DNA of 64,000 nucleotides from assembly GCA_902801255.1 (NCBI GenBank), contig CADCHO010000003.1, forward strand, positions 20,188 to 84,187, read 5' to 3'. The stretch's first letter is position 1; each line of letters starts with the position of its first letter. The DNA is from an uncultured Eubacteriales bacterium. GTDB taxonomy: Bacteria > Bacillota > Clostridia > Peptostreptococcales > Anaerovoracaceae. Shown here in pieces: positions 2,400 through 47,654 of this stretch. The notes under the pieces were generated by a model, which saw nothing but the letters and a program-made list of their open reading frames with translations, made no database searches and was not told the DNA's origin. The translations under genes and the position numbers were made by a program.

Positions 2400-3368
2400 T
2401 CAGTCATAAGTTGCGCGTTCAAGCGCTTTTTCGCATATCTGTATTGCGCGGATAGCTACCTTTCCGTCTACCAGAACATCCTGCCCGTTGACGACTGCCT
2501 CATAAAAACTCTGAAGCTCTGCTCTGAGCGGCTCTATGATCGGCACAAATATCTTCTGCACTACAGCATCCTGTTTGTAAGCTCCGGAATGTCCGCTGTC
2601 AACCATCATCTCAGTGCCCTTTGTCACTGTAAGTGTCTTGTTGAGCAGGTCTGCATATACAACGCTTTCATCAGTATGAATCTCAAGCGTTCTTTCCTTG
2701 CTCTGCGAAACTCTGCTTGCATTTATAACTGCATGTGCATTGGATGAAAAGTCCAGCATGCAAGTCGCAAAATCGGTAGCCCCCGACTTTATAAGCTCTC
2801 CGTTGCCGCGTATATCGGTAACAGTCGCAGGCTCCATGAGATCGCATACGATATCGATGTCATGGATCATGAGGTCTTCAATAACGCTGACGTCCTTGAT
2901 GCGTCCGCTGCCGCTGAATGGACTGTAGCGATGAGCCTCGATGTAAAAGATGTTCTTGCCGTCAAGAATCTTTTTAGCCTCTTGTACAACGGCATTGAAT
3001 CTCTCGATATGGCCTACCTGCAGTTTGAGTCCGGCCTTTTCAAAAGCATCTGTCAGTAACTGCGCATCCTCGCTCGTAGTAGCAAGCGGCTTTTCAATAA
3101 GAGCATTTACTCCGTGCTCAAACACTTTCAAGCCGATTTCTTTATGCAGGGAAGATGGTACCGCAACTACTACAGCATCTACAGCGTCCAACAATTCCTC
3201 TATTGTTTTAAACGCTTTTGTGTCATACTTTTCTGCTACAGCAGCAGCCTGATCGTCATTTGCATCGTAGATACCGACAAAATCAAATCTCTTTTCATCG
3301 CTTATATTACGCACATGGTTCAAACCCATATGTCCGGTACCAATCACGCCTATCCTGAGTTTTTTCAT
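2400..3368 (-). CDS. Gfo/Idh/MocA-family NAD-dependent sugar oxidoreductase (WbpB-like)
   Basis: 322 aa. MKKLRIGVIGTGHMG Rossmann N-terminus, EKPLA motif. Confidence 0.9.
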   Translation of the reverse strand: MKKLRIGVIGTGHMGLNHVRNISDEKRFDFVGIYDANDDQAAAVAEKYDTKAFKTIEELLDAVDAVVVAVPSSLHKEIGLKVFEHGVNALIEKPLATTSEDAQLLTDAFEKAGLKLQVGHIERFNAVVQEAKKILDGKNIFYIEAHRYSPFSGSGRIKDVSVIEDLMIHDIDIVCDLMEPATVTDIRGNGELIKSGATDFATCMLDFSSNAHAVINASRVSQSKERTLEIHTDESVVYADLLNKTLTVTKGTEMMVDSGHSGAYKQDAVVQKIFVPIIEPLRAELQSFYEAVVNGQDVLVDGKVAIRAIQICEKALERATYD

Positions 3369-3426
3369 CTTTCCCTCTCCTTATTATCATTATGCAAACT
3401 GAATATATTTACAAACGGCAGAGCAC

Positions 3427-5814
3427 CTATATACCACTACCGATCTTCCAGAAGTACTTCGCTCCATCTTCACTTATTAACGGCTCAACACCGATTTCCC
3501 TAGTTATGCTTTCTATATCCTTCTCAGCCTTTCCCTTTTTCTTTTTATAATTTCGCTCATATAACTTTTTATCTAAATAGATTCCACCATACCCGGCATT
3601 TTTTATTTTACTTATCATTTGAGGCACTTCACATTTGGCTACAGCCTTTTGCCACTGTGCTTCCTCACGTCCCTGCATTGCGCCATAGCTCCAGTGAATA
3701 TTTTCTGTCTCAAGATATCCATTAAACATCCCGTATGAACCCTCGATATAGGAGGACGGCCACTCAAGATACGGCAATGTGAAGATCATATCTCCGCTAT
3801 TAAGTTCGCTTTCTATCCGGCCAAAGAACTGCCTTGAATTATTAAATTCTGAAGTGTCATACGGTATGAAATCAACAGTCTGGTCGAAAATTCCTACTGC
3901 CAGTATGCATAGGCTTATGCATATAACCCGCCGGTAATCAATTATATCCCTGAGGCCGTCTATCATCATTCCGATGATCAGCAGGCTGAGGAACATTATG
4001 ATAAGCGACATTCTGTTGTAACTCCTCATTGGCAGCACTATTGCTACTGAGATAATGCTTCCGATTCCTCCGATGGTAGCAATGATAAATGTCGCAAAAT
4101 TAAGCCAGCTTATCTCTTTATACTTATTCTTATCTGAAAAGATCAGCAGGAGCGATACAAGCAGTCCGAGTGATGCTATCAGACCTATCGATGCAGTTGA
4201 ATTTTCATTGACTAAAGGATAATTCCTGAAATATCCTGCTGCGATGCTGTTGAAAAGTGCGATCCTGTGCCCTATCCTCGGCAATATCAGCTGTACCAGT
4301 TTAAGCCCAAACGTCTCTACGTCACCTCTGTTGCGTACAGCCAGTTCTCCAAACGAATTTGTTCCTTCCAGTACCCAATACAGAACATTCGGCATAGCAT
4401 TGATAACCACACCTGTAACAGTTGAGGCAATAAATGCAAGAGGATACATCTCCTTTTTAATTGCTCTCCCGCGTTTATTTATTATCCGTATAACCATTGA
4501 AGCGGCAAGCAGGGCACATGTGAAGTAAGCATAGTACATACCTGTAAAAGCACACATGAAAGCCAGCATCATTCCGCACCAGAACTGCCTGTCGCGCTTG
4601 TCAGGATCGAGCTGGTCAGGGATCCTGCCCTTTACGACGTTAAGTGAGAGCATGCAGGCTATTGGAAGTGTGTAATACGGTGTAAGCCATATATGCACAT
4701 ATCTCATCTGTATAAACGAGCTGAATGCAAAAAGTATGCCAACCACATAAGAGCTGCTTCTACTGACATTCTGGTTTCTGGAAGCAGCGGCCGCAATGAT
4801 CGCAATAAGATAAAAGTTTGCAAAATAGAACAGGTTTATGATCAGGTAGGGATTGTCACTGAACAGCCCTATCAGTTTTACACAAATAAACGACAGACTG
4901 TCTGAATACGGATAGTCAAACATATCTCCGCCTGACAGTCCTCCTACTAAAGGATTCGCCATTGACAAGCCATTTCGGTCAATGTTTTTTGCAAGATAAT
5001 ATACCCCCATTTCATCTCCGCCGGCATATACAAGCGGAAATGAAATATCTGCTTTTCTGTACAGGAAAAGTAATAATATCGTCACCGAAAACACTATTGC
5101 GGCATAAAGAACTACCTCTCTTCTGAAATCCGGTGTCATTTTTATTCTTTTTCCCGGTTCCCTCCTTTTTATCCTTAGCCAGACATAGATAATAAGGTAG
5201 GAGAGCACTAAAAACAGAACCACCTGCATGATTTTTGCTGTGATCCACACAAGTATGCTGCTGTCTCTTGTTACTGTAAGAAAGTCTACTTTAAGGTTCT
5301 TTATCTCTATTCCGGCACTCCCGGAGGTGAATATCCTTAATTGGCAACTTTCGGGATGCTCTCCCCTGTAAAATGCTATTTCCTGCCGGATCTTATTCTC
5401 ACCGTGCTTCAGTTTAACAGTAAATTCATCACACGGATCATCAAAACCATCTCCGTACAGATCCACAGTCAGCTTGGTTTTCTTATCCGCTTTGTTTACT
5501 GCGGTAAAGCTGACCCTCAAAGAATCTCCTTTCAGGAGAAAAATTCCACTTGTAAACAGTTTAGGCCCTTTGTCAGCATCTGTTATCAGTACATTTTCTT
5601 CTACATGGTCATAAGGACTTTCAGAATCAAGCATATCTGAAGTATTCAGCACGTTTTTTTCAAGTACCTCAGTATATGTGACATCATCTATATGCGGAAT
5701 AATGGTAGAAGCAAGAATGCTGGCTACCAATACGACAAGCGCTATATAAGCCCTGCCTCCGTGAAAAATCTTTTTTTTGTTTCTTTGCTCCTTTGCAGAT
5801 CTACACATACACAT
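3427..5814 (-). CDS. Large polytopic membrane protein, GT-C-like (YfhO/GtrC-type candidate), with an extra N-terminal TM plus exported beta-rich module
   Basis: 795 aa with more than 10 hydrophobic helices. Residues ~215-795 align by eye with the 583-aa protein at 12649..14400 (NIHWSYGAMQGRE vs NLRWSYGSFAGEK). ATG 5814 with AAAGG upstream. Confidence 0.7.
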   Translation of the reverse strand: MCMCRSAKEQRNKKKIFHGGRAYIALVVLVASILASTIIPHIDDVTYTEVLEKNVLNTSDMLDSESPYDHVEENVLITDADKGPKLFTSGIFLLKGDSLRVSFTAVNKADKKTKLTVDLYGDGFDDPCDEFTVKLKHGENKIRQEIAFYRGEHPESCQLRIFTSGSAGIEIKNLKVDFLTVTRDSSILVWITAKIMQVVLFLVLSYLIIYVWLRIKRREPGKRIKMTPDFRREVVLYAAIVFSVTILLLFLYRKADISFPLVYAGGDEMGVYYLAKNIDRNGLSMANPLVGGLSGGDMFDYPYSDSLSFICVKLIGLFSDNPYLIINLFYFANFYLIAIIAAAASRNQNVSRSSSYVVGILFAFSSFIQMRYVHIWLTPYYTLPIACMLSLNVVKGRIPDQLDPDKRDRQFWCGMMLAFMCAFTGMYYAYFTCALLAASMVIRIINKRGRAIKKEMYPLAFIASTVTGVVINAMPNVLYWVLEGTNSFGELAVRNRGDVETFGLKLVQLILPRIGHRIALFNSIAAGYFRNYPLVNENSTASIGLIASLGLLVSLLLIFSDKNKYKEISWLNFATFIIATIGGIGSIISVAIVLPMRSYNRMSLIIMFLSLLIIGMMIDGLRDIIDYRRVICISLCILAVGIFDQTVDFIPYDTSEFNNSRQFFGRIESELNSGDMIFTLPYLEWPSSYIEGSYGMFNGYLETENIHWSYGAMQGREEAQWQKAVAKCEVPQMISKIKNAGYGGIYLDKKLYERNYKKKKGKAEKDIESITREIGVEPLISEDGAKYFWKIGSGI

Positions 5815-6051: not shown

Positions 6052-6612
6052 TTATAAACCTTCATATTTCAAGCGAAATGTTTCAAAGCTCATCAGATTT
6101 TTGTCTTTCTCTGATACTATGGGATGCTTCGTTTCCCAAGCTATTCCTAATTCTGGTGAATTATATATAAGTCCTGTATCTGCGCCTTTTATATATTCTC
6201 CAATACATTTATATGACATAACTGCAAAGTCAGAAAGAACTTCGAATCCATGTGCAAATCCACGTGGTATATACAATACTTTATGGTTTTCTGCTGATAA
6301 GTTTACTTTTAAATGTCTCCCAAATGAAGCTGATCCTTTTCTAAGGTCAACGACAACATCATTTATTTCCCCATAAACCGTATGGACTATTTTTATCTGT
6401 GGATTTGCCGTCTGAAAATGTAATCCTCTTATTACACCTTTAACTGAATACGATTCAAAATCTTCAGCAGTTATGCCTTCTATTCCGAGCATCTCGAACA
6501 CATCCTTTTCGTAGTATTTAAGAAAATATCCTCTTCTATCTTCTCTTACAAAGGGTGTAATAACTTTTACTCCTTCTATATCAAGTGTTTCTATTTTGAA
6601 GTCCGTATTCAT
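6052..6612 (-). CDS. RmlC-fold cupin sugar-nucleotide 3,5/5-epimerase (AscE-like candidate)
   Basis: RGLHFQ, YIPRGFAHGF, GIAW motifs. Start trimmed to ATG 6612 (MNTDFKIE), which makes an ATGA overlap with the upstream stop at 6609. Confidence 0.85.
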   Translation of the reverse strand: MNTDFKIETLDIEGVKVITPFVREDRRGYFLKYYEKDVFEMLGIEGITAEDFESYSVKGVIRGLHFQTANPQIKIVHTVYGEINDVVVDLRKGSASFGRHLKVNLSAENHKVLYIPRGFAHGFEVLSDFAVMSYKCIGEYIKGADTGLIYNSPELGIAWETKHPIVSEKDKNLMSFETFRLKYEGL

Positions 6613-38013: not shown

Positions 38014-40896
38014 CTATGGCTGGGTTGCTTGTGTATAGTACTCTCCGCGATAGTAGACTACGTCTTCAGGCTGCGGCGGGTACTCTCCCTCCGTGATATC
38101 CGGAATCTGCCTCATTATCTTGCTCCATAAGTAGGCTGCATTCCCGGACGATCCGCTCATTACAGTATTATGGTCTGTACCGATCCAGAGTGCGGCCGAG
38201 TACTTCGGCGTAAATCCAACAAACCAGTAATCGTAGTTATCGTTTGTGGTTCCTGTTTTGCCTCCTACCTGAGTGCCGTAGATCGATGCGCTCCGCGCTA
38301 TACCCCTTGATACTACAGACTCAAGGCAGTCTCTCATTATGAACGCCACGCTCTCATCAAGCACTCTGGTGCCTTCCGTTTCTTTAACCAGGAGCGCCTT
38401 TCCCTTGGAGTCAGTCACCTTTGTGTATGCGGTGCCGGAGTTTCTTATTCCTCTGTTAGGGAAAGTCGCATAGGCAAGCGCCATGTCAAGCGGCGTCGTT
38501 CCGTATGTCATAGCTCCCAGAGCCAAAGCTGCCGGATTGTAGTCATTAGTCGGAACAGACAAGTCATCGGCAACCGTGGATATTCCGAACTTCTTCAGCA
38601 TCTCCATCGAATAATCCGGTCCGACCTGCAGCTGGATCTTCACCGCGCACGTATTGATCGACTGCTGCAGTGCTGTCCTGAACGTCCTGTATCCCGAGAA
38701 TCTTCTTGAGAAGTTGAGCGGCCAGATTTCGTTATTTATCTTAAGTCTCTCGTCCATAACAACCGATCCGGCTGTTATATAGTTGCCCCAGCGTCTTATA
38801 CCTTGTCTGTCGATGCCGTAATCGGTAAATGGGAAAGGCATTCCGCGTTTGGCGTAATCTTCACTTTTCTGGAGGGCTGCAGAGTAAACGGCCAGCGGTT
38901 TTATCGAAGAACCAGGCTGGCGCGGTGATGTTGCTCTGTTGAACAGCATCTGTCCCGTGGTGTTTCTTCCTCCCGCCATCGCGCGGATGCAGCCGGTGCC
39001 GACTTCCGTCACTACCATTGCCGCCTGCGGGTTTTCAATTGAGTACGGGAAGTTGTAATCGTCGCTGAATTCAGTGGTGATCGCGTTCTGTATATCCTGA
39101 TCGATAGTCGAGTAGATACGGAGGCCGCCTGTGTGTATGAGCTGCTCCGCCTTATCCACGGACATGTTATACTTATCCGCCAGGTCATTTGCCACCTCGG
39201 TCGTGAGGAAGTCCGTGAAATATGAAAGCTCATTCTGCTTTTTCTCTATATGCGGATGCAGGATCTTGGCGATCTTCTTTTTCGCGCCATCTGCCTCAGA
39301 CGGGTCTATGTAACCCTGCTCAGCCATCAGGTCGAGCACCAGATCCCGCCTTTCGGCGGCCATCTCATTTGCATACAGCTTGGACTTTTTGAGGTAAGTC
39401 GTATCCTCATCCTCGTAGTCTTTCAGGAGGGCGTAGGTATCAGGCGCCTGCGGCAATGCCGCGAGTGCAGCGCTTTCTTCAAGATCGAGCTCTCTCACTT
39501 CCTTTCCGAAATACGTGTAAGCCGCGGCTTTGATACCATAGCAGCCATATCCCAGATAGATGGTGTTCAGATACGCCTCAAGGATCTCGTCCTTTGAGTA
39601 TGCCCTTTCGATCTTGAGGGCGTAGATCATCTCGCGTAGCTTACGGCTTAATGTTCGCTCGCTCTTTATATCCGCAAGGAACACGTTTCTGGCAAGCTGC
39701 TGCGTGATGGTGGACGTACCGCTGATCTCCTCAGAGCGTCCGGTCAGCTTGCTGAGAACAGCTCCGAATAAACGCTTGTAGTTAAGGCCGTGATGTTTGT
39801 AGAATGTTTTGTCCTCTATTGCAATGAAGGCGTTCTTAGTAACCTCCGGGATGTCGGCTATAGGTACGACCTCTCTGTCTTCCGTGTAATACAGCTTGTC
39901 GATCTCCTCTCCCTTTGCGTCATAGATGATAGAGCTCAGATCGATGTTGGAGTAGATGCTGCTGGCATCAGGATCTATAGCCGGAACAGAATTATATGCG
40001 TAAATAAAGGCTCCCACGAACGCGGCCACGAAGAGTAGAAGCACACCAATAAGCACGCGGCCTTTCGTCAGCCAACGCTTATTGCTCTTGGTCTGCTTGG
40101 CCTTTTTATCCTTTTTCGCCTTCTTAGACTTGCTTTGCCTGGCCGGCGTAGCTGCCTCGACAGACTTGTCCTCTTCGACAACCGCTGACGTCTCCGTAGG
40201 CTCAATCTCTTCTGCAGACTCATCCGGCATGTCAGCTTGAGCAGACTCGACGCCCTCAACCTGTATGATGGCCTCAACTGGCTTATCTGGCTTAGCTGCT
40301 TCTACTGGCTCGGTAGCCTTAGTCTCCTCGGCAGGCTCGGCGACCTCAGCCGGCTCGACAGCTTTAACAGCCTCAGCAGGCTCATCAAGCTTTTCCTGCT
40401 TTTCAGGCTTCTTTGCCTTTGCCGCCTTTTTAGATTTATTTTTCTTATTTTGCTTGGCCGGCTTCTCAACCTTTGCAGTTTCTGCCGGCTTGTCTGCCGT
40501 GTCGGCTTCGATAGGCTTGGCGGGCTCAACAGGCTTGGCTGCTACGACCGAGTCTTCCTTCTTTTCAAGCTTGGTCGCTGCGACCGGCTCAGCTTTCTTT
40601 TCCGGTTCAGCAGGCTTTACCGGCTTAGATGGCTTAGCCGGCTTGTCAGTCTTGGCCGGCTCGAAAGCCTTCACGAACTCGGCAGTCTTGCGTTTTATAT
40701 AGCTAAATATACTTCCCCTCGATTTCTTACCGGCACTGTCGTCGATCTCTTTCCAGGTGAAGTTTATGTTTTTGCTGTTATTATCTTGTTCTTTGACTTT
40801 ATCGTTTATATTATCTGCCACGTCTACTACCTGTGCACAAAAATACTCAGCTCTTTTTAGAGCTGTTTTGGAGTCTGTCCCCATCTCCGGGGGCAT
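38014..40896 (-). CDS. Class A penicillin-binding protein (GT51 transglycosylase plus transpeptidase) with a long low-complexity N-terminal tail
   Basis: EDKTFYKHHG and TITQQLARN (GT51). SSIK and KTGTT (transpeptidase). The longest ORF begins at TTG 40923. ATG 40896 or 40884 is more likely, so the start is uncertain. Confidence 0.9.
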   Translation of the reverse strand: MPPEMGTDSKTALKRAEYFCAQVVDVADNINDKVKEQDNNSKNINFTWKEIDDSAGKKSRGSIFSYIKRKTAEFVKAFEPAKTDKPAKPSKPVKPAEPEKKAEPVAATKLEKKEDSVVAAKPVEPAKPIEADTADKPAETAKVEKPAKQNKKNKSKKAAKAKKPEKQEKLDEPAEAVKAVEPAEVAEPAEETKATEPVEAAKPDKPVEAIIQVEGVESAQADMPDESAEEIEPTETSAVVEEDKSVEAATPARQSKSKKAKKDKKAKQTKSNKRWLTKGRVLIGVLLLFVAAFVGAFIYAYNSVPAIDPDASSIYSNIDLSSIIYDAKGEEIDKLYYTEDREVVPIADIPEVTKNAFIAIEDKTFYKHHGLNYKRLFGAVLSKLTGRSEEISGTSTITQQLARNVFLADIKSERTLSRKLREMIYALKIERAYSKDEILEAYLNTIYLGYGCYGIKAAAYTYFGKEVRELDLEESAALAALPQAPDTYALLKDYEDEDTTYLKKSKLYANEMAAERRDLVLDLMAEQGYIDPSEADGAKKKIAKILHPHIEKKQNELSYFTDFLTTEVANDLADKYNMSVDKAEQLIHTGGLRIYSTIDQDIQNAITTEFSDDYNFPYSIENPQAAMVVTEVGTGCIRAMAGGRNTTGQMLFNRATSPRQPGSSIKPLAVYSAALQKSEDYAKRGMPFPFTDYGIDRQGIRRWGNYITAGSVVMDERLKINNEIWPLNFSRRFSGYRTFRTALQQSINTCAVKIQLQVGPDYSMEMLKKFGISTVADDLSVPTNDYNPAALALGAMTYGTTPLDMALAYATFPNRGIRNSGTAYTKVTDSKGKALLVKETEGTRVLDESVAFIMRDCLESVVSRGIARSASIYGTQVGGKTGTTNDNYDYWFVGFTPKYSAALWIGTDHNTVMSGSSGNAAYLWSKIMRQIPDITEGEYPPQPEDVVYYRGEYYTQATQP
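40020..40700 (-). repeat. Low-complexity K/P/A/E-rich coding repeats (KPxEP / AKPVEP type) in the PBP N-terminal tail
   Basis: Reiterated GGCTT/GGCTC-rich DNA. Protein reads ..KPAKPSKPVKPAEPEKKAEP..AKPVEPAKPIE..VEPAEVAEPAEE.. before the single TM helix (VLIGVLLLFVAAFVGAFIY). Confidence 0.7.
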
Positions 40897-41136
40897 AATG
40901 AAATTGTACCAAAAGTGTAGCAAACATGCGATAGAAAAGCAGTCTTTTTACCGACTTATTACTTAATATATCTGGAGTTTGTAACCCATATTTTTAAGAT
41001 AAAGTCATGCACTACTTAATGACAATGCGGGTTTGAGCGCGCACGGGATAATGTACCTCGAAGTATGTTGTTCTCCCGTGCGTGCTGTCCCACAATTTAC
41101 CAGAGGGTAACAATATAGAAGCAACCTGTCTTTCGC

Positions 41137-41979
41137 CTATAATCTTGGCAGCACATCATTTTCAATTATGCTTTTTATCATCGGAATATTTATAACTCCA
41201 TCTATGTCATAAGTAACTATCAGGTTCTTCCATGGTACTATTCCAACGCCCTCAAAAGCTTCCATTTTTCGCTTGTGCCTGTTCTGATATACTGCTTGAT
41301 CCATCATGCCCGCATGTTCCCAGTAAAACTTCTTTCTTTCCCGGTCGCGGAATGTAAAATCCGAAGAATACGGCCAGTTATTAATCCTTATTACCTCTTC
41401 ATATCTGAAAGGAACTCCATAATTTACCAGCTGCTCAACGATTGACTGCTCTGACTTCGACCTTACATTGAAGCCTGCAGATGTCGGAAATTTCCTGTTT
41501 TCTGGTTTGTATGTGCTTTTCTCATAAGTCTCTTTTGCCCATTCTACGTGGCGCATGATCCCCTCAAGATACTGATCAGTCTGATTGATCCCCGGCCTGT
41601 CAAACAAACCTTTGAAAAAGTACTCATCCGGCAAACTTCTATACGGCTTCAACATTTTATTGCGCAGATAGTCAATATCCATAGGCTGAAGCTTCTCCCC
41701 CGCTTTTGATAGAACATCGATATTATTCCTCAGTATCTTTATGGAGCGGTTAAGGTACTCCTTTCTTGCAAGCGACTTAAGCATTTCGGTTTCTTGGCCT
41801 ACCACGGACCTGATGTACTTCCCATTATTCTGAAAAGTATGATAGAACGTATCCTTTCCATGTGTTTTACAGCATGCCAGACTGCCCTCAACGCAACCCT
41901 CATATTCCCGGATGTAGTTCTCTAATAATTTAGAGCTCTCATACATCATTTGTTCAATTTGATCTTTGTAAGTACTCAT
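41137..41979 (-). CDS. Hypothetical protein with a possible PD-(D/E)xK-like nuclease C-terminal region
   Basis: Start trimmed to ATG 41979 (MSTYKDQIEQ). C-terminal pattern SKSEQSIVEQL..PFRYEE..YSSDFTF..YWEHAGM resembles TnsA/Vsr-like folds. This is a weak by-eye call. Confidence 0.5.
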   Translation of the reverse strand: MSTYKDQIEQMMYESSKLLENYIREYEGCVEGSLACCKTHGKDTFYHTFQNNGKYIRSVVGQETEMLKSLARKEYLNRSIKILRNNIDVLSKAGEKLQPMDIDYLRNKMLKPYRSLPDEYFFKGLFDRPGINQTDQYLEGIMRHVEWAKETYEKSTYKPENRKFPTSAGFNVRSKSEQSIVEQLVNYGVPFRYEEVIRINNWPYSSDFTFRDRERKKFYWEHAGMMDQAVYQNRHKRKMEAFEGVGIVPWKNLIVTYDIDGVINIPMIKSIIENDVLPRL

Positions 41980-42229
41980 TTTTCTCACTTTCGATGTAGA
42001 ATGGCTAGTTTTATTGCCTTTTTTACACCCAAATCCATGAAATGGATGTATTTTTATATCATTTTGATATATTTTTGCATTTTTTATCTCATTTAGAAGC
42101 ATTTATCCGTGCAAAACAGTGAAGATGATGCATCTCTTGCTTATTGTATGAGAAATCTACATCATATCTGTGTTAGTAAAACCTGTGCTATAAATGATTA
42201 TCTAGTCCTAGTAAAAGTTTATTCTAGCC

Positions 42230-42269
42230 AATAAAAAATGTCGAACGAGCAAGGCACTCATTTCGACAT
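42230..42269 (-). terminator. Intrinsic terminator at the 3' end of the candidate ncRNA
   Basis: ATGTCGAA (42238-45) pairs with TTCGACAT (42262-69), with an inner GAG/CTC extension. On the minus strand it is followed by UUUUUUAUUGG. A second small hairpin TGACCT/AGGTCA lies at 42274-42290. Confidence 0.75.
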
Positions 42270-42330
42270 TAAATGACCTTTTTCAGGTCACTACACCTTA
42301 TTCTGAGTCTTGGGAGCTCCTCCTACTCAA

Positions 42331-42469
42331 ACCGTGTTGCATTGCTGTGTTGGCTGACCTTGTCTTGTATCGCGGTACTGGTCGATCCTGTCTTGCACTG
42401 CTATGCCAGCCGACACAGTCTCGCATCGCTGTAATGGTCGGCTCTGTCCCCTTTGATACTGTCGGCTTA
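42331..42469 (-). repeat. Five degenerate ~28-nt tandem direct repeats inside the ncRNA candidate
   Basis: + strand units: accgtgttgcattgctgtgttggctga / ccttgtcttgtatcgcggtactggtcga / tcctgtcttgcactgctatgccagccga / cacagtctcgcatcgctgtaatggtcgg / ctctgtcccctttgatactgtcggctta. Confidence 0.6.
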
Positions 42470-42924
42470 GACATCCATATGTGAGCTGTCAACTTATCTT
42501 CAGTTTCAATGAAAATTCCCTTCATGCCGGAAAGTCCGGTCTGCTCCGAGAGCCCCAGCGCTGGCCGGCGGGACTACTAAACCCGCGCGGACAGCTATAG
42601 AGCGGGGCGATCGGCTAAGCTGACCCGGTGAGGCCACAGGAGGGCGAACCGAACATCGACATAAAGATAAAGGCATGCATACTACACGCTCATCCATGCC
42701 GCTTTGAGGGTTTGCAGCACTCGTTCTGCGTATGTCACGCAATAACAGCTGCCCCGCTGAGCCTGCTCCTACTAAATGTCAATAAAAACCACCAAAAAAT
42801 TATCAGGCACGATTTTCCTTGAAATTCCAAGGGTTTGGAGCGCCATTCAATTTCTCCCTAATGAACAATCAGCAACTACACAATTAGGGGTATCCGATTT
42901 GTATAATAAGGACAAATATTCAAG

Positions 42925-42957
42925 AACAACAAAAAAGCCTTCTGTTTCCAGAAAGCT
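42925..42957 (-). terminator. Intrinsic terminator closing the recombinase operon
   Basis: Minus-strand RNA reads AGCUUUCUG-GAAA-CAGAAGGCU (one G-U pair) followed by UUUUUUGUUGUU, 50 nt after the stop at 43008. Confidence 0.75.
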
Positions 42958-43007
42958 CAATCAAATTCTATATAGTGCAGCCTGATTATTATTTAATATT
43001 CATGGAC

Positions 43008-43406
43008 CTATAATGCGTTTTCCGGATCTACAAACTCGTCCGGATTAATCACCTGGGCAGTTGTGAGATCAAAATCAACCAATCGGTATTTTTCATGAAC
43101 AATTCCATACACAACATACGTTGTTTCCTTATCCCAGCCACATGCCTTATAAATTACTGAAACAAATGGGCTGCTTGAAATCTCAAAGGTGTATTTATCT
43201 CCCTCAATTAATTCTGGAACCCGAAAGTTATCTCTATCGATGGCCTCGCAGCACTGCACTGCAATATGCTTTTCCTTAGAATTCAGCAGGAATCTTATAT
43301 AGTCCGGATTTCCAATAGCCCTTATTGTTGCATGATGAATAAGGAGTCTGCCGCGCCTTAATGAAAACGACAGCCCTACTTTAATGTCAGACCTGATATC
43401 TATCAT
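43008..43406 (-). CDS. Hypothetical protein, third copy of the recombinase-associated domain
   Basis: 132 aa. ..YIRFLLNSKEKHIAVQCCEAIDRDNF..VIYKACGWDKETTYVVYG..VDFDL. Homologous by eye to 43411..44097 and to the recombinase C-terminus. Confidence 0.7.
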   Translation of the reverse strand: MIDIRSDIKVGLSFSLRRGRLLIHHATIRAIGNPDYIRFLLNSKEKHIAVQCCEAIDRDNFRVPELIEGDKYTFEISSSPFVSVIYKACGWDKETTYVVYGIVHEKYRLVDFDLTTAQVINPDEFVDPENAL

Positions 43407-43410
43407 TTTT

Positions 43411-44097
43411 TCATTCCTTATCTACTCGATTCATAGAAGCAAATGATCCATAACCAGTTATGCTCTCAAGAGTAACATTGCTATGATCCTCTACCGGAAC
43501 ACCAAAAGAATTGTGCCAGTCATCAGGATAGAATGGTTTTCTGGCCATTTTTATTTCCTCAGCTTCTCTTGCTGCAATCTGCTCTGGCGTATAAGATGAA
43601 TTTTCAGCTTCAGCAATCATTTGCTCTTTGGTTTTTTTCTTATGTTCTTTAGTTATCTCAGTTTCATCCAGTTCGAATACGTATAATACATATCCTTCAT
43701 AGTTGATTCTATGCCCAAGGATCTTGTACCTACAGCTGTTATCCCATCCCATAAGATCATAAAGTCTCTGAGAAAACGGTTTACTGGTAATCTTGCGGCT
43801 CTTCCTTTTATCAGGCTTCGCTATACACCATCTAATAGCATCCTTGTCCTCTTCTTCACATTGCCTAATTGCTATTCGATGTTGCTCACTGTTTACAAGG
43901 ATCTGAATGTAAACTGCATCTTCCAAACCATTGATACAAGCTGTATTGAAGGTGATACTGTCTTTTCTGATAGTAACTGCAGGTTCTCTAAGGTGAGCGA
44001 ACATTTCACGTCTGGCTATCTGATAGCCATCATAACTGAAAGTGTCTTCTATTTCTGCAGCCCTTTCCATCATTACCTGAGTATCCATTTCACTCAT
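43411..44097 (-). CDS. Hypothetical protein, second copy of the recombinase-associated domain
   Basis: Start trimmed to ATG 44097 (ATGA overlap with the recombinase stop). ..ITFNTACINGLEDAVYIQILVNSEQHRIAIRQCEEEDKDAIRW..RLYDLMGWDNSCRYKILGH..VFELDETEI. Confidence 0.7.
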   Translation of the reverse strand: MSEMDTQVMMERAAEIEDTFSYDGYQIARREMFAHLREPAVTIRKDSITFNTACINGLEDAVYIQILVNSEQHRIAIRQCEEEDKDAIRWCIAKPDKRKSRKITSKPFSQRLYDLMGWDNSCRYKILGHRINYEGYVLYVFELDETEITKEHKKKTKEQMIAEAENSSYTPEQIAAREAEEIKMARKPFYPDDWHNSFGVPVEDHSNVTLESITGYGSFASMNRVDKE

Positions 44098-46007
44098 ACA
44101 GCACACCTCATTTCTTCGATTAGCTTTCTGGATTCAGCCTTTACCTCCATCAGAACTGATTCGCTTACACCTCCTGCAGTAGCATAGTATTTGGCTGGTC
44201 TTAGTATTTCCCAATTACCCTTATACCGTATCCTTTCATATAAAGTAGTTGCTCTATCTGAAGAACTACTCCCAAAATGGTTTTCCCATTCTTCAGGATA
44301 TACGGTTTCTACGCCAATGATCTTCACTTCCCCTGCTACATCAGGATCTTCTTCCTCAAATAAATTAGCTTTTATATTGCCAACATCCGCTAATTGTTTG
44401 CCTGTATAATCAGACTCTTCCTCCTGAACCAGGCGGATGATTTCTGGTTCAGCGAGATCGAACAGAAGCATTTGGGTATCACCATCAGATAGGTATTGGC
44501 CACATAGTTTATATTTATTAGTAATATCCCAGCCGGCTACTTCATATAAAGGAGCTGCAAATCCACTAATGCTCCTCTGCAGACCAACCCATTTCCCATC
44601 TCTTTTCCGACCCCACATGATTGCATTAGGACTATCCGGATTACACGGTCGGATTGCAATACACTTTTCTACAGTATTAAATAAGAGCTCTACAAACTCC
44701 ACATCCCTGAATTTTTTGAGACAAATAGAGTTAAATGAGACTCGACCATCTTTAATTGTCATAACAGGTTTATCATTGGTAGAGAAAAACTGCGTTCTGA
44801 CTATCTCAAACCCATCCAGATCAAAACGATCTTGTAATCCTGATTGTTCTGATCCAATCAGGTCTTCTTTGGCATTATGACTGTTATAAGCACTTTCTGA
44901 TGCATTTTTATAGTCTTCTACTGTAAAGCCTCTGCACATTCGGTTTACAGATACAAACCCTTGAAGCGCTCCTTCATCAACCACATCAAGAGTCGGGAAC
45001 TCATTCTGGCCCCTGCTATAACGCGCGATCTCAAGCTTGGCCTGAACTGCGTTAAAGACATCTCGACTTACGATAGCCTCATGATGATCATATTCAAGTA
45101 CCTGTTTACGGTTCTTATTGTTCTTTCGCTTTTTGTGCTCCCAAAAGTCATATGTATATGTTTTCCAGCTCAGAATATCTCCACAATATCTTTCGTTCTT
45201 AAGGATCTGTCTTATACCGGATGGATTCCAGCTTATGTTTCCTTTCTTTGATGGGCGCCTTAGCTCATTTAGGAGTTGAGAGATTTCACTGAGTGTGAGA
45301 CCAGCAAGATATGAATAGAACATGAGCTTCACAGTAATAGATTCTTCATTATTTATAATGAGATCTCCATTTTCATCATGATCATATCCTAATAGCACCG
45401 GTGTCAGAAAATTCCCGTTATCAAATCGCTTTTCAAGGGACCAGTTCATGGAATTGCTCTTGGTTTTGGATTCTTCCTGGGCTGATGCTGCAAGTACCGT
45501 TAATAGCAACTCGCTCGTAGCATCAAGCGAATAGAAGCCTTCATTCTCAAACTTCACTCCGACTGGTGGGTTTAATTGAGCAAGCTTTCTTACAACGCTC
45601 AGACAGTCAACTACATTTCTGGCAAACCTTGATACATTTTTTGTAACAATGACATCAATCTTGCCTGCATAGCAGTCTGCAATCATGCGATTAAACTCAT
45701 CCCTGTTTTTAAGAGATGTTGCGCTTATACCCTCATCTGCATATATACCTGCAAAAATCCAGCCAGGAGTATCATTGATTTCCTTCTCATAATGCTTTTT
45801 CTGCAGCTCATAAGAAGTTGTCTGCGCCGGGTCATCCGTTGATACTCTGCAATAAGCGCATACACGCCTATTTACATTTTCATCTCTTAAAGAGTTGATC
45901 TCTACAGCTGGTATTACAATACGCTGCCGGTCTTCATGATTATCATTCTGTATTTTCTGACGAATCAGTTCTCTTTGTTCGTTTCTATCTATGCTCTTAC
46001 CGTTCAC
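44094..46007 (-). CDS. Large serine recombinase with an extra C-terminal domain
   Basis: 637 aa. VCAYCRVSTDDPAQ (catalytic Ser), VTKNVSRFARN, recombinase domain ..YGY... GTG start at 46007 with AGGATGG upstream. The C-terminal ~120 aa carry the repeated domain. Confidence 0.9.
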   Translation of the reverse strand: MNGKSIDRNEQRELIRQKIQNDNHEDRQRIVIPAVEINSLRDENVNRRVCAYCRVSTDDPAQTTSYELQKKHYEKEINDTPGWIFAGIYADEGISATSLKNRDEFNRMIADCYAGKIDVIVTKNVSRFARNVVDCLSVVRKLAQLNPPVGVKFENEGFYSLDATSELLLTVLAASAQEESKTKSNSMNWSLEKRFDNGNFLTPVLLGYDHDENGDLIINNEESITVKLMFYSYLAGLTLSEISQLLNELRRPSKKGNISWNPSGIRQILKNERYCGDILSWKTYTYDFWEHKKRKNNKNRKQVLEYDHHEAIVSRDVFNAVQAKLEIARYSRGQNEFPTLDVVDEGALQGFVSVNRMCRGFTVEDYKNASESAYNSHNAKEDLIGSEQSGLQDRFDLDGFEIVRTQFFSTNDKPVMTIKDGRVSFNSICLKKFRDVEFVELLFNTVEKCIAIRPCNPDSPNAIMWGRKRDGKWVGLQRSISGFAAPLYEVAGWDITNKYKLCGQYLSDGDTQMLLFDLAEPEIIRLVQEEESDYTGKQLADVGNIKANLFEEEDPDVAGEVKIIGVETVYPEEWENHFGSSSSDRATTLYERIRYKGNWEILRPAKYYATAGGVSESVLMEVKAESRKLIEEMRCAV

Positions 46008-46019
46008 TGTTTCACCATC

Positions 46020-47003
46020 CTATTGTTCAAGATGCCAGTACCAGTCATTACCCTTTTTATATGAAACAATATCCAATTCCTGTTTCGCAGATTCAATAGT
46101 CCGCTTCCCTATTCCAGTTGCCATGATGCGTTCAAATATATCGTTACTTATCATGTCTTCGTTATTAAGAAGTAGCATCAAGCAGGCCTTAGCTCTTTCA
46201 ATCTTTCTTTCTCCAAAGCTGCTGCTTGATAATAATTCTTCAGCCGATATGTCATATTTGCCTACCCATTGGAACCCTTTTTCTCTATCAAGTCTGAATG
46301 CATATGCATTTCCTTCTGGTGCAAGGCTGCTTTTAACAGGGACAATTATGCGAATATCTGGATCCTCTTTATCTCTTCCTACCATCAAGACACTTCTTGC
46401 AGCAGCTGCTATATCGATGCTTCCCAAGCCTCTATATATGCTTTTCCCGTTAGATCCGCCTTTATTCATATGGCCTATAAGTACAACAGCACATCCAGAT
46501 TCTTCTGCGTTTTTTGCTAGTGCTGCAAAAGCTGATCTGAATCCTCCGGGTGTCTGACTATCTGTATCTTTTCTGAGAAAAGCTTGAACTGGATCTATGA
46601 CTAAAAGTTTGGCATTTGTGTCTGTTATGGCTTTTCGGAATCGTTCATCTCCAATCGACAGGCCAGCAGCATAATCAGCATTAATAAATGCTACTTTAGA
46701 ACAATCTGCGCCAGCTTTGATCAGCCTTGGTTTAATCGTATCCTCTTTACCATCTTCTGCCCCTTGAAATATGACGGTTTGTGGTTCACATGTAGTTTCC
46801 CCTGTCGGAATACTCCTTCCGGTGGTAATCATTGCGGCAATCTGAAGCATCAATGTCGTTTTACCTTCACCCGGATCACCTTGAACGATCGTTACCTTCC
46901 CATAAGGAATGTACGGATACCATAACCAAGAGACATCCCTGGCTTGTATAGAGTCATAGTATTCCAACTTGTAATAATCATCTTGATTCATAGACATAAG
47001 CAT
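46020..47003 (-). CDS. RecA-fold AAA_25/RepA-like ATPase with a C-terminal wHTH-like tail
   Basis: 327 aa. VTIVQGDPGEGKTTLMLQIAA Walker A, LLVIDPV Walker B, VVLIGHMNKG. Confidence 0.8.
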   Translation of the reverse strand: MLMSMNQDDYYKLEYYDSIQARDVSWLWYPYIPYGKVTIVQGDPGEGKTTLMLQIAAMITTGRSIPTGETTCEPQTVIFQGAEDGKEDTIKPRLIKAGADCSKVAFINADYAAGLSIGDERFRKAITDTNAKLLVIDPVQAFLRKDTDSQTPGGFRSAFAALAKNAEESGCAVVLIGHMNKGGSNGKSIYRGLGSIDIAAAARSVLMVGRDKEDPDIRIIVPVKSSLAPEGNAYAFRLDREKGFQWVGKYDISAEELLSSSSFGERKIERAKACLMLLLNNEDMISNDIFERIMATGIGKRTIESAKQELDIVSYKKGNDWYWHLEQ

Positions 47004-47050
47004 AATATAAAGCTGTTCCGTTTATGTTCTATTTAGGCTAATTCTATTAA

Positions 47051-47097
47051 TAATAATCTATATAGATTATTATATCTTCCTCAAAAATCGTTTACAA
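47051..47097 (-). promoter_or_regulatory. Near-consensus sigma-A promoter overlapped by a perfect 22-bp palindromic operator
   Basis: The minus strand reads TTGTAA (47097-92), a 17-nt spacer, then TATAAT (47074-69). The palindrome TAATAATCTATATAGATTATTA lies at 47051-47072. The site sits between the divergent HTH gene (47160 +) and the AAA_25/recombinase operon. Confidence 0.7.
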
Positions 47098-47108
47098 TCT
47101 TAATGTAC

Positions 47109-47654
47109 TTAAACACTTTCGTTTAATGCATGGGGTAAACTATAAGAGGTGCATTTCCTATGGAACTCGACTATGTGAAAATCGGTCAGAGAATAAAAGC
47201 AGCAAGAACTGCAAAAGGGTATACACAATACAAGCTTGCAAAAGTCACTAATATATCCCAGGCTCATATTGGTCATATAGAAGTTGGATCTACAAAGCTT
47301 GCGCTTTCTCCATTCAAGAAGCATTCCATTGAGTTTTTCATCATGTATTATAACAACCACCTCATTATTGATTCTTTTGACATCAACCGAATAACCATTG
47401 TCCTCCAGTTCAAAAAGGATCCTCATTACATCCTTCGGCTCATATCCCTCTGGTCCTCTCAGGGCACCTTCACTGACACCGAGCGCTTCTGCTAGCTTTT
47501 TTATCGTTTCTTCATTAGGCGCTCTTAGGCCTCTTTCATATTGGGCAATTCTGATATCTGCACTTCGATATGGATAATGCATCTCTAAGCCTACTTCCTT
47601 TTGTGTTAAGCCTCTGACCTTCCTAGCATATAAAATCCTATCTCCAATATTCAT
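47109..47654 (-). CDS. XRE-family HTH regulator; only the first ~120 codons (47654..~47295) look native
   Basis: MNIGDRILYARKVRGLTQKEVG...IKKLAEALGVS...LEWRKRKL. The remaining ~60 codons (Cys/Phe-rich) are antisense to the + HTH fragment. Confidence 0.7.
   Translation of the reverse strand: MNIGDRILYARKVRGLTQKEVGLEMHYPYRSADIRIAQYERGLRAPNEETIKKLAEALGVSEGALRGPEGYEPKDVMRILFELEDNGYSVDVKRINNEVVVIIHDEKLNGMLLEWRKRKLCRSNFYMTNMSLGYISDFCKLVLCIPFCSSCCFYSLTDFHIVEFHRKCTSYSLPHALNESV
47160..47297 (+). pseudogene. 5' fragment (~46 codons) of an XRE/Cro-type HTH repressor gene
   Basis: AGAGGTG RBS. MELDYVKIGQRIKAARTAKGYTQYKLAKVTNISQAHIGHIEVGSTKL is a good HTH_3 N-terminus. After ~47297 the frame is merely antisense to the convergent XRE gene. 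Confidence 0.55.

Follow-up and report, generated by a model that had tools for sequence, protein, structure and literature searches.

A window of 64,000 nucleotides (nt) from an uncultured Eubacteriales bacterium of the family Anaerovoracaceae (contig CADCHO010000003.1; coordinates refer to this window unless another locus is named) contains, between the gene for a 280-amino-acid protein and a serine-recombinase operon, a GC-rich core that an earlier note had read as one large structured non-coding RNA. Comparison with related loci shows a different composition, in which the core is a mosaic spacer and probably contains a new small structured RNA in truncated form. The part of this element that lies in the core, here termed “module A” (42534-42654, plus strand), is followed at several other loci by a second structured part, “module B,” which is missing beside the window copy. 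The remaining pieces of the mosaic would be a host terminator, a lineage-specific array of four 28-nt units, the stump of the linker that elsewhere joins A to B, and DNA of the recombinase operon. For module A, including B at the loci that have it, the most likely interpretation is a small and independent non-coding RNA (ncRNA) that is transcribed from the plus strand of the window.

The evidence for a conserved element is confined to module A. Related loci, which carry an L number here, come in part from genomes named Mogibacterium or Anaerovoracaceae; outside two sister contigs treated below, relatives detectable by blastn and nhmmer exist for 42534-42654 only (121 nt), a segment that the covariance model R1 matches with 122.5 bits (E 3e-23). 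The first part of the module is a rod-like hairpin of about 90 nt (42538-42625) composed of five stacked helices. These are P1 (GGUCUGCU/AGCUGACC), P2 (CCGA/UCGG) and, beyond a tandem G·A, P3 (GCCCC/GGGGC), followed after the 6-nt bulge UAUAGA by P4 (GCUG/CAGC) and P5 (CCG-GCGGG/CCCGC-CGG). The asymmetric bulges CUA and UAUAGA are conserved, and the terminal loop has 9-10 nt, its form ACUACUAAA being present in 15 of the 16 copies. A second hairpin (42626-42651) carries another tandem G·A, which in one clade gives way to canonical G-C/U-A pairs, and a loop of the ARRGGA type that reads ACAGGA in the window.

Covariation across this structure exceeds what the controls produce. In an alignment made with MAFFT of 16 distinct sequences, all from one bacterial family, 96.9% of cells are paired and both-sided, compensatory changes occur in 15 of the 35 pairs. 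The covariation score is 0.264, against 0.104 ± 0.011 for shuffled alignments, none of which reached it in 500 trials, and controls in which the pairing partners were slid gave at most six pairs with double changes and scores of at most 0.051. The window copy alone folds into the same structure in a single-sequence minimum-free-energy (MFE) prediction. Compensatory substitutions beyond such controls are what is generally expected of a structured RNA or of structured single-stranded DNA, and the collection of homologues and covariation analysis that the earlier note had called for thus bear out its claim of a conserved structured element, although for these 121 nt only.

Among the helices that had been paired by eye, GCGGG/CCCGC (42568-86) is real and forms part of P5, with GCGAG/CUCGC as its covarying counterpart in relatives. 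The TGCGT/ACGCA pairing is indeed present in the sequence, and CCGGA/TCCGG lacks conservation in relatives. The long-range helix said to enclose about 150 nt is refuted by the shared fold of module A, in which 42601-08 pairs locally with 42552-56; its 3' arm, moreover, actually lies at 42751-58 rather than at 42761-68, and in the sister contig L003 it is mutated without compensation and situated 4.3 kb away.

The mosaic nature of the core is most evident from the two sister contigs, L003 and L004, which match the window at 92-97% identity on either flank of a split. Alignment by blastn and the junction sequences place 4.3 kb of additional DNA in these contigs between window positions 42678 and 42691. 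The block (982-5314 in L003, and also in L004) includes two epimerase fragments (truncated Epimerase_2 and NAD-epimerase genes), genes for an Abi_C protein, a metallophosphatase and an APH-family kinase, two small open reading frames (ORFs), and module B; it looks like a variable defence or resistance patch adjoining the A-B element. Because the two halves of the core stand 4.3 kb apart in the sisters, they are not an obligatory unit, and the proposed GGCATG/CATGCC helix, which crosses the indel junction, has its arms equally far apart there. The 4.3-kb indel would have placed recombinase-operon DNA beside A in the window while removing B and the accessory genes that the sisters retain.

Each end of the core has a source of its own. 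At four loci with an 80%-identical orthologue of the 280-amino-acid protein (L006-L009; gene order SEC-C protein, tadA, 280-amino-acid gene, penicillin-binding protein), the spacer between tadA and the gene matches window positions 42228-42302 (79% over 76 nt by blastn) and the stretch just upstream of the gene, with nothing between them. The two hairpins and U6 that had been noted at 42230-42290 are present on the minus strand as a small hairpin at 42274-42290 and another at 42238-42269 that runs into U6 (42232-42237). The sequence from 42269 to 42238 with its U6 has the form of a Rho-independent terminator and is kept downstream of tadA in L006-L009; since it occurs there without the GC-rich core, it is a host intergenic terminator (region 42228-42302, minus strand) and not the 3' end of a large RNA, as had been proposed. 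On the other side of A, positions 42655-42690 (plus strand) constitute a remnant of the A-B linker (AAAGAUAAAGGCAUGCAUACUAC...), identified from blastn against L003/L004, the junctions and an alignment of linkers. It ends just short of where B starts in relatives, with the indel breakpoint at 42678/42691. Beyond it, 42691-43007 is non-coding DNA downstream of the 132-amino-acid gene of the recombinase operon (minus strand), shared only with the sister contigs, where it adjoins a truncated epimerase gene and not module A. A terminator scan called a minus-strand terminator within this stretch at 42935-42958, in agreement with the recombinase-operon terminator reported earlier at 42925-57.

These observations bear directly on the reading with which the work began, a single minus-strand structured RNA of about 480-570 nt that would run from the recombinase terminator to the hairpins and U6 and represent a new large class resembling ROOL and GOLLD. 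The stretch is continuous, GC-rich and ORF-poor with a minus-strand terminator at each end, all of it is kept in the sister contigs, and the folding energy of the 571-nt segment does modestly better than shuffled sequence on the minus strand (MFE z -2.6). The plus strand scores better still (z -3.3), however, and the strand evidence described below also favours plus. The sisters interrupt the stretch with 4.3 kb of genes, homologues beyond them exist for 121 nt only, the 3' hairpins are host sequence found without the rest, the enclosing helix fails, and the Rfam models of large RNAs are unmatched. A single large RNA is accordingly very improbable and can be considered largely refuted already.

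Comparison with Rfam 15 (4227 covariance models) gave no assignment. A cmscan of all 64 kb yielded no match at gathering score; for 41900-43200, with both strands searched at E<=10, the output was five matches to unrelated families, all at chance level and the best at 18 bits. ROOL, GOLLD, OLE, HEARO, raiA, transfer-messenger RNA (tmRNA), RNase P, 6S and signal recognition particle (SRP) RNA were matched neither at gathering score nor at E<=10, so that the suggested likeness to ROOL and GOLLD finds no support from the search that had been recommended for it; full-length A-B exemplars from other loci likewise matched no Rfam family at E<=1. The scan was not blind, since it recovered raiA at 135 bits in L020/L021. 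Absence from Rfam 15 makes it probable that the conserved element represents a new class. A resemblance of the minus strand to SRP RNA (GGUCAG...GGAGCAGACC) was considered and set aside, the SRP model being unmatched even at E<=10. A scan with ARAGORN found no tRNA or tmRNA gene.

In its intergenic location, relative GC-richness, covarying fold and narrow phylogenetic range, module A resembles the orphan bacterial ncRNA motifs (raiA, ROOL, HEARO; Rfam type “Gene; sRNA”). ROOL is about 580 nt long and GOLLD about 800 nt; A is far shorter, at about 120 nt or, when B is counted, about 270 nt, and in place of a multi-junction structure it has a simple fold of one rod and one hairpin. With the repetitive extragenic palindromic (REP) sequences and bacterial interspersed mosaic elements (BIMEs), A and B share the form of imperfect, GC-rich hairpins within spacers that are richer in AT, often by terminators, but they are single-copy per locus and genome, far longer, and conserved in their asymmetric bulges.

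Module B supplies most of the information on strand. It follows A on the same strand in six lineages (L024, L025, L027, L028, L031 and the sisters L003/L004), beginning with a linker of 40-100 nt, after which come the conserved lead-in UAAUGACAAUGCG, another rod (GCGCGCACGRGA...UCYCGUGCGUGC) and, last, a covarying mini-hairpin of 4-5 base pairs. The stem of B shows A-U/G-C exchange in addition to the covariation of its terminal mini-hairpin, and at four positions it has G·U in most or all copies, which pair on the window's plus strand only. All seven copies fold better on the plus strand, by 4.4-8.9 kcal/mol; module A also folds better on plus in all lineages but the L010 group, and in six lineages the next gene that is not disrupted runs in the same direction as A when A is taken as plus. 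Together these features favour an RNA from the plus strand, and we infer that the element is RNA rather than single-stranded DNA and is read from that strand, opposite to the one proposed in the earlier note. Such an RNA would consist of a rod hairpin with conserved bulges and a short hairpin, to which B would add the second rod and mini-hairpin for a total of about 270 nt. A pseudoknot of Shine-Dalgarno/anti-Shine-Dalgarno type between a GGAGG loop in the second hairpin of A and a CCUCC following B was also considered; it is not conserved, with exceptions in L029 (loop AAGUGA) and L003 (GCCUACAGC).

Several findings weigh against this interpretation of A as a plus-strand RNA. For the L010 group, folding energies favour the minus strand. 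G·U pairs in module A are rare and symmetric between the strands (five on plus, six on minus), so that A alone picks no strand and would fit a single-stranded DNA hairpin equally well. Scans for promoters and terminators gave none that is convincing for module A on either strand, promoter-like sites being at chance level, and the sample comprises 16 sequences from one bacterial family.

The symmetry of wobble pairs in A, which pairs almost purely by Watson-Crick rules, is also the point from which a role as DNA can be argued, whether as a single-stranded hairpin or as a landmark for recombination or integration (an attachment site, for example, or a hot spot). Such a role would account for the differing cargo beside A and is in keeping with the mobile or variable DNA that surrounds A and B: the recombinase operon, the 4.3-kb block, putative transposases in L028, L031 and L029, and the replacement of A in L015. 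The doubling of linker and B around the 280-amino-acid gene in L003 agrees with it as well. The four conserved G·U pairs of B would be C·A mismatches on the other strand, however, and G·T mismatches in DNA; A has, as RNAs do, conserved loops and asymmetric bulges that are rich in adenine on one strand; neither target duplications nor a shared core were found at the junctions; and A occurs neither among 2.9 million viral contigs nor in the plasmid and phage collections. A function as DNA is thus unlikely, and the plus-strand RNA is preferred.

In the window, the B that should adjoin A is gone, the linker ending at about 42690 where B should begin. A copy of B designated B1 nevertheless lies beyond the far side of the 280-amino-acid gene (41017-41107, plus strand; covariance model R2, 90.4 bits, E 1e-17), comprising the conserved lead-in UAAUGACAAUGCG and the hairpin GCGCGCACGGGA...UCCCGUGCGUGC. 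Linker and B also stand at this site in L003, where they are doubled, one on each side of the gene, and the same spacer of L006 is without B. Since module A occurs without B in five other lineages besides the window, the window copy may still be functional.

The distribution of module A is narrow. A pattern of its conserved block matched once in each of five GTDB species, all of them rumen metagenome-assembled genomes labelled Anaerovoracaceae, Mogibacterium or “Clostridiales”, and also in six metagenome contigs of the Joint Genome Institute (JGI). Scanning with R1 gave exactly one A per locus and, beyond what the pattern had matched, a more divergent copy in L034-L037. A strict pattern scan of the 2.9 million viral contigs of IMG/VR gave no match, the six matches to a looser pattern were false positives (none confirmed by the covariance model), and blastn against phage and plasmid collections found nothing. 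On these searches, module A is restricted to rumen Anaerovoracaceae, having been seen so far only there.

Another recurrent property of module A is its proximity to genes of the 280-amino-acid protein family, the family most often found adjoining it. In the window this gene occupies 41137-41979 on the minus strand. Nearly all of about 200 homologues of the protein have 278-285 residues and begin at the position of Met42 in the ORF 41137-42102; the start of that upstream-extended, 321-residue ORF is therefore probably mis-called. As the ORF begins at Met42 (41979), the spacer free of coding sequence extends over 41980-43007, between this gene and the 132-amino-acid gene, both on the minus strand, and the gap of the earlier note stands with its bounds corrected.

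The protein combines an N-terminal alpha-beta3-alpha domain with a C-terminal restriction-endonuclease-like PD-(D/E)xK domain. Its C-terminus matches that of the PADLOC candidate PDC-S68 (E 5e-23), and the invariant residues of the family follow the pattern E...D...EH...K. There are 574 matches at E<=1e-5; a second, profile-based search returned mainly the same close relatives and added little, and no match by sequence was found in Pfam, NCBIfam or the PDB. The AlphaFold2 model has a predicted local distance difference test (pLDDT) score of 88, and with it Foldseek finds weak matches of the whole protein to TnsA, NucS and a Cas4-family protein. A double-stranded RNA-binding domain was considered for the N-terminal domain and rejected (model pLDDT 90, TM-score to such domains <=0.27); the best structural matches of this domain are prefoldin-like and not significant (E 0.07).

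The distance between A and the gene is 0.3-0.6 kb in nearly all cases. The two are divergent in the window and L003/L004 and co-directional, at 58-60% protein identity, in three further sets of loci (L010/12/13, L017/18/19/30/32 and L034-37). At the same distance, A-B is followed in L024 by a homologue of 30% identity, and in L023 A is divergent from a family member of 26% identity; in L014 the distance is 2.7 kb. Proximity is thus found in seven lineages in all, in either orientation and down to 26% protein identity, while the flanking genes vary between lineages (a penicillin-binding protein, an HD protein with a CCA-adding enzyme, an ABC transporter with SIR2, or rfbA).

From this pattern the best guess is that A acts together with the adjacent protein or on its expression; an alternative guess is that A, as RNA or DNA, does no more than mark a place where variable genes gather. 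The strongest form of the first would make A (with B) the RNA partner of the PD-(D/E)xK protein in an undescribed two-component RNA-nuclease module, with adjacent but independently oriented genes, that would serve defence, mobile-element functions or RNA processing. That A and the protein stay adjacent down to 26-30% protein identity and in at least six chromosomal contexts is what suggests such a module, which must be rated as distinctly unlikely all the same. Structured elements beside nuclease-fold genes despite deep protein divergence are familiar from tracrRNA with Cas9 and omegaRNA with IscB or TnpB, and for tracrRNA variable orientation is known as well. Unlike guide RNAs, A has no evident guide-like variable segment, its loops and bulges being conserved; unlike Cas9, IscB and TnpB, the protein is without RuvC, HNH or a detectable RNA-binding fold, and many family members have no A nearby.

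The neighbourhood also supplies counterevidence. Foldseek found no recognisable RNA-binding fold in the 280-amino-acid protein. Five lineages that bear the gene (L006-9, L015/16, L020-22, L038 and L039-41) have no A within 3-5 kb, and L029 and L033 have A without the gene. Nor does the similarity of A follow that of the protein, as A in L024 is 85% identical to that of the window and the protein only 30%. The association of A with the gene is not obligatory.

Several further observations concern the surroundings of this gene family. Within the ~450 nt that precede each member, a short motif peculiar to the lineage occurs 5-6 times, in both orientations: it reads TCTACATC/GGGTGTA in the window (41985-42170, minus strand) and in L006, TACACCC/GGGTGTA in L010 (5780-5990) and L034, and GAAGTAC/GTACTTC in L023 (3830-4290). 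By their sequence and arrangement, they look like operator or recognition sites. In L020/L021 a raiA RNA (RF03072, 135 bits; 6059-6221) lies downstream of a 279-amino-acid member and upstream of an hpf/raiA gene, and L021 has, relative to L020, extra DNA with two large serine recombinases inserted into the adjoining comF-like gene at its 3' end. In the window, the class A penicillin-binding protein ORF at 38014-40923 encodes 969 residues with a transglycosylase domain only from residue ~338; relatives are called at 676-960 residues, which points to either a long N-terminal extension or a wrong TTG start.

The remainder of the GC-rich core is occupied in part by the 28-nt units. Autocorrelation at 42336-42447 gives an identity of 57% for a lag of 28 and of 64% for a lag of 56, values matched by none of 2000 shuffles, and Tandem Repeats Finder makes no call; the periodicity is real but weak. 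The earlier note had counted five units, and although their periodicity is upheld, the units number four, arranged as two 56-nt super-units. Adjacent units are able to pair with each other (AGCCGAC...GUCGGCU), and nhmmer relatives of the region are confined to the sister contigs. A 15-nt piece of the repeat unit, TGCCAGCCGACACAG (42397-42411), recurs in one hairpin of L029 downstream of its A, so that hairpin modules around A seem to be shuffled between lineages. The L029 region in question (3238-3520, on a JGI contig) is GC-rich, spans about 280 nt and contains several perfect hairpins. In L015 the A region is wholly replaced by unrelated DNA with a 22-nt tandem repeat in 6.5 copies (TCGATCGCCTGTCGTTTGCTTG, 90% matches; 2238-2379), located at the module A site of the near-identical L014; this repeat and the window's 28-nt units have GTCGAT..CCTGTC..TTGC in common.

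On the minus strand the repeats (42447-42336) precede the hairpins and U6 (42290-42232), which precede the 280-amino-acid gene (41979), an order of tandem short repeats, terminator and same-strand protein gene that recalls the type III toxin-antitoxin system ToxI/ToxN and would suggest a cassette of that kind. The units here are degenerate 28-nt repeats only ~57-64% alike, and the gene lies 250 nt past the terminator with a promoter-like extended -10 of its own. Its product is unrelated to ToxN/AbiQ, matching no PADLOC toxN model and having a PD-(D/E)xK-like C-terminus. Orthologous loci at 80% and 60% identity lack upstream repeats, by which the cassette is refuted; the probability left to it is minimal.

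The base composition of the core invites yet another interpretation, that of a decayed protein gene from a donor of higher GC content. The core is indeed GC-rich as had been reported, with a GC fraction of 0.51-0.58 across 42300-42700 compared with 0.29-0.35 in both flanks, and this equals the value of host coding regions. It also contains several mutually overlapping ORFs of 50-80 amino acids, which the earlier note had judged not to be genuine genes; their overlap is confirmed, and Pfam gave no match to them at E<=10. For the 75-amino-acid ORF over the repeats, an exhaustive search of 1.8 billion representative proteins yielded no credible relative. Its only two matches are to giant repeat proteins, where the score adds up over 5-8 weak stretches (pairwise E about 1e-4 per stretch), and they are taken as repeat-inflated chance similarity and not as protein homology. 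A period of 28 nt is not divisible by three, and the substitutions in module A compensate base pairs rather than resembling synonymous changes. Descent from a decayed gene is scarcely credible on these grounds.

The recombinase operon that borders the core was the neighbour to which the proposed RNA had been tied. It is a compact minus-strand operon (43008-47654) encoding an HTH_3 regulator (181 amino acids), an AAA_25 RepA/RadA-like ATPase (327 amino acids), a large serine recombinase of 637 amino acids (Pfam Resolvase and Recombinase; CcrB-like at 5e-32) and proteins of 231 and 132 amino acids that match no family. It sits in a low-GC region of polysaccharide biosynthesis that extends to about 51 kb and is probably a small integrative element, and no att-like direct or inverted repeats of at least 10 nt were found between 42600-42800 and 46.9-51.5 kb. 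The tie does not hold for the conserved element, which occurs at many loci without any recombinase. An IS110-type bridge RNA or seekRNA was likewise considered and rejected, the neighbour being a large serine recombinase, not a DEDD enzyme, and most A loci having no recombinase. In L028 and L031, B is directly followed by what we take, from its N-terminal resemblance, to be an IS256-type transposase, and an ORF near A in L029 is presumably transposase-like on the same grounds.

There is, then, no new giant bacterial RNA at this locus, and the case illustrates how a GC-rich “island within an island” can come from an indel joining unrelated spacers. What stays is a well-supported small motif with a reproducible gene neighbourhood, and the motif merits entry in motif catalogues. 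Covarying orphan motifs with a steady protein partner have earlier led to new RNA-protein systems.

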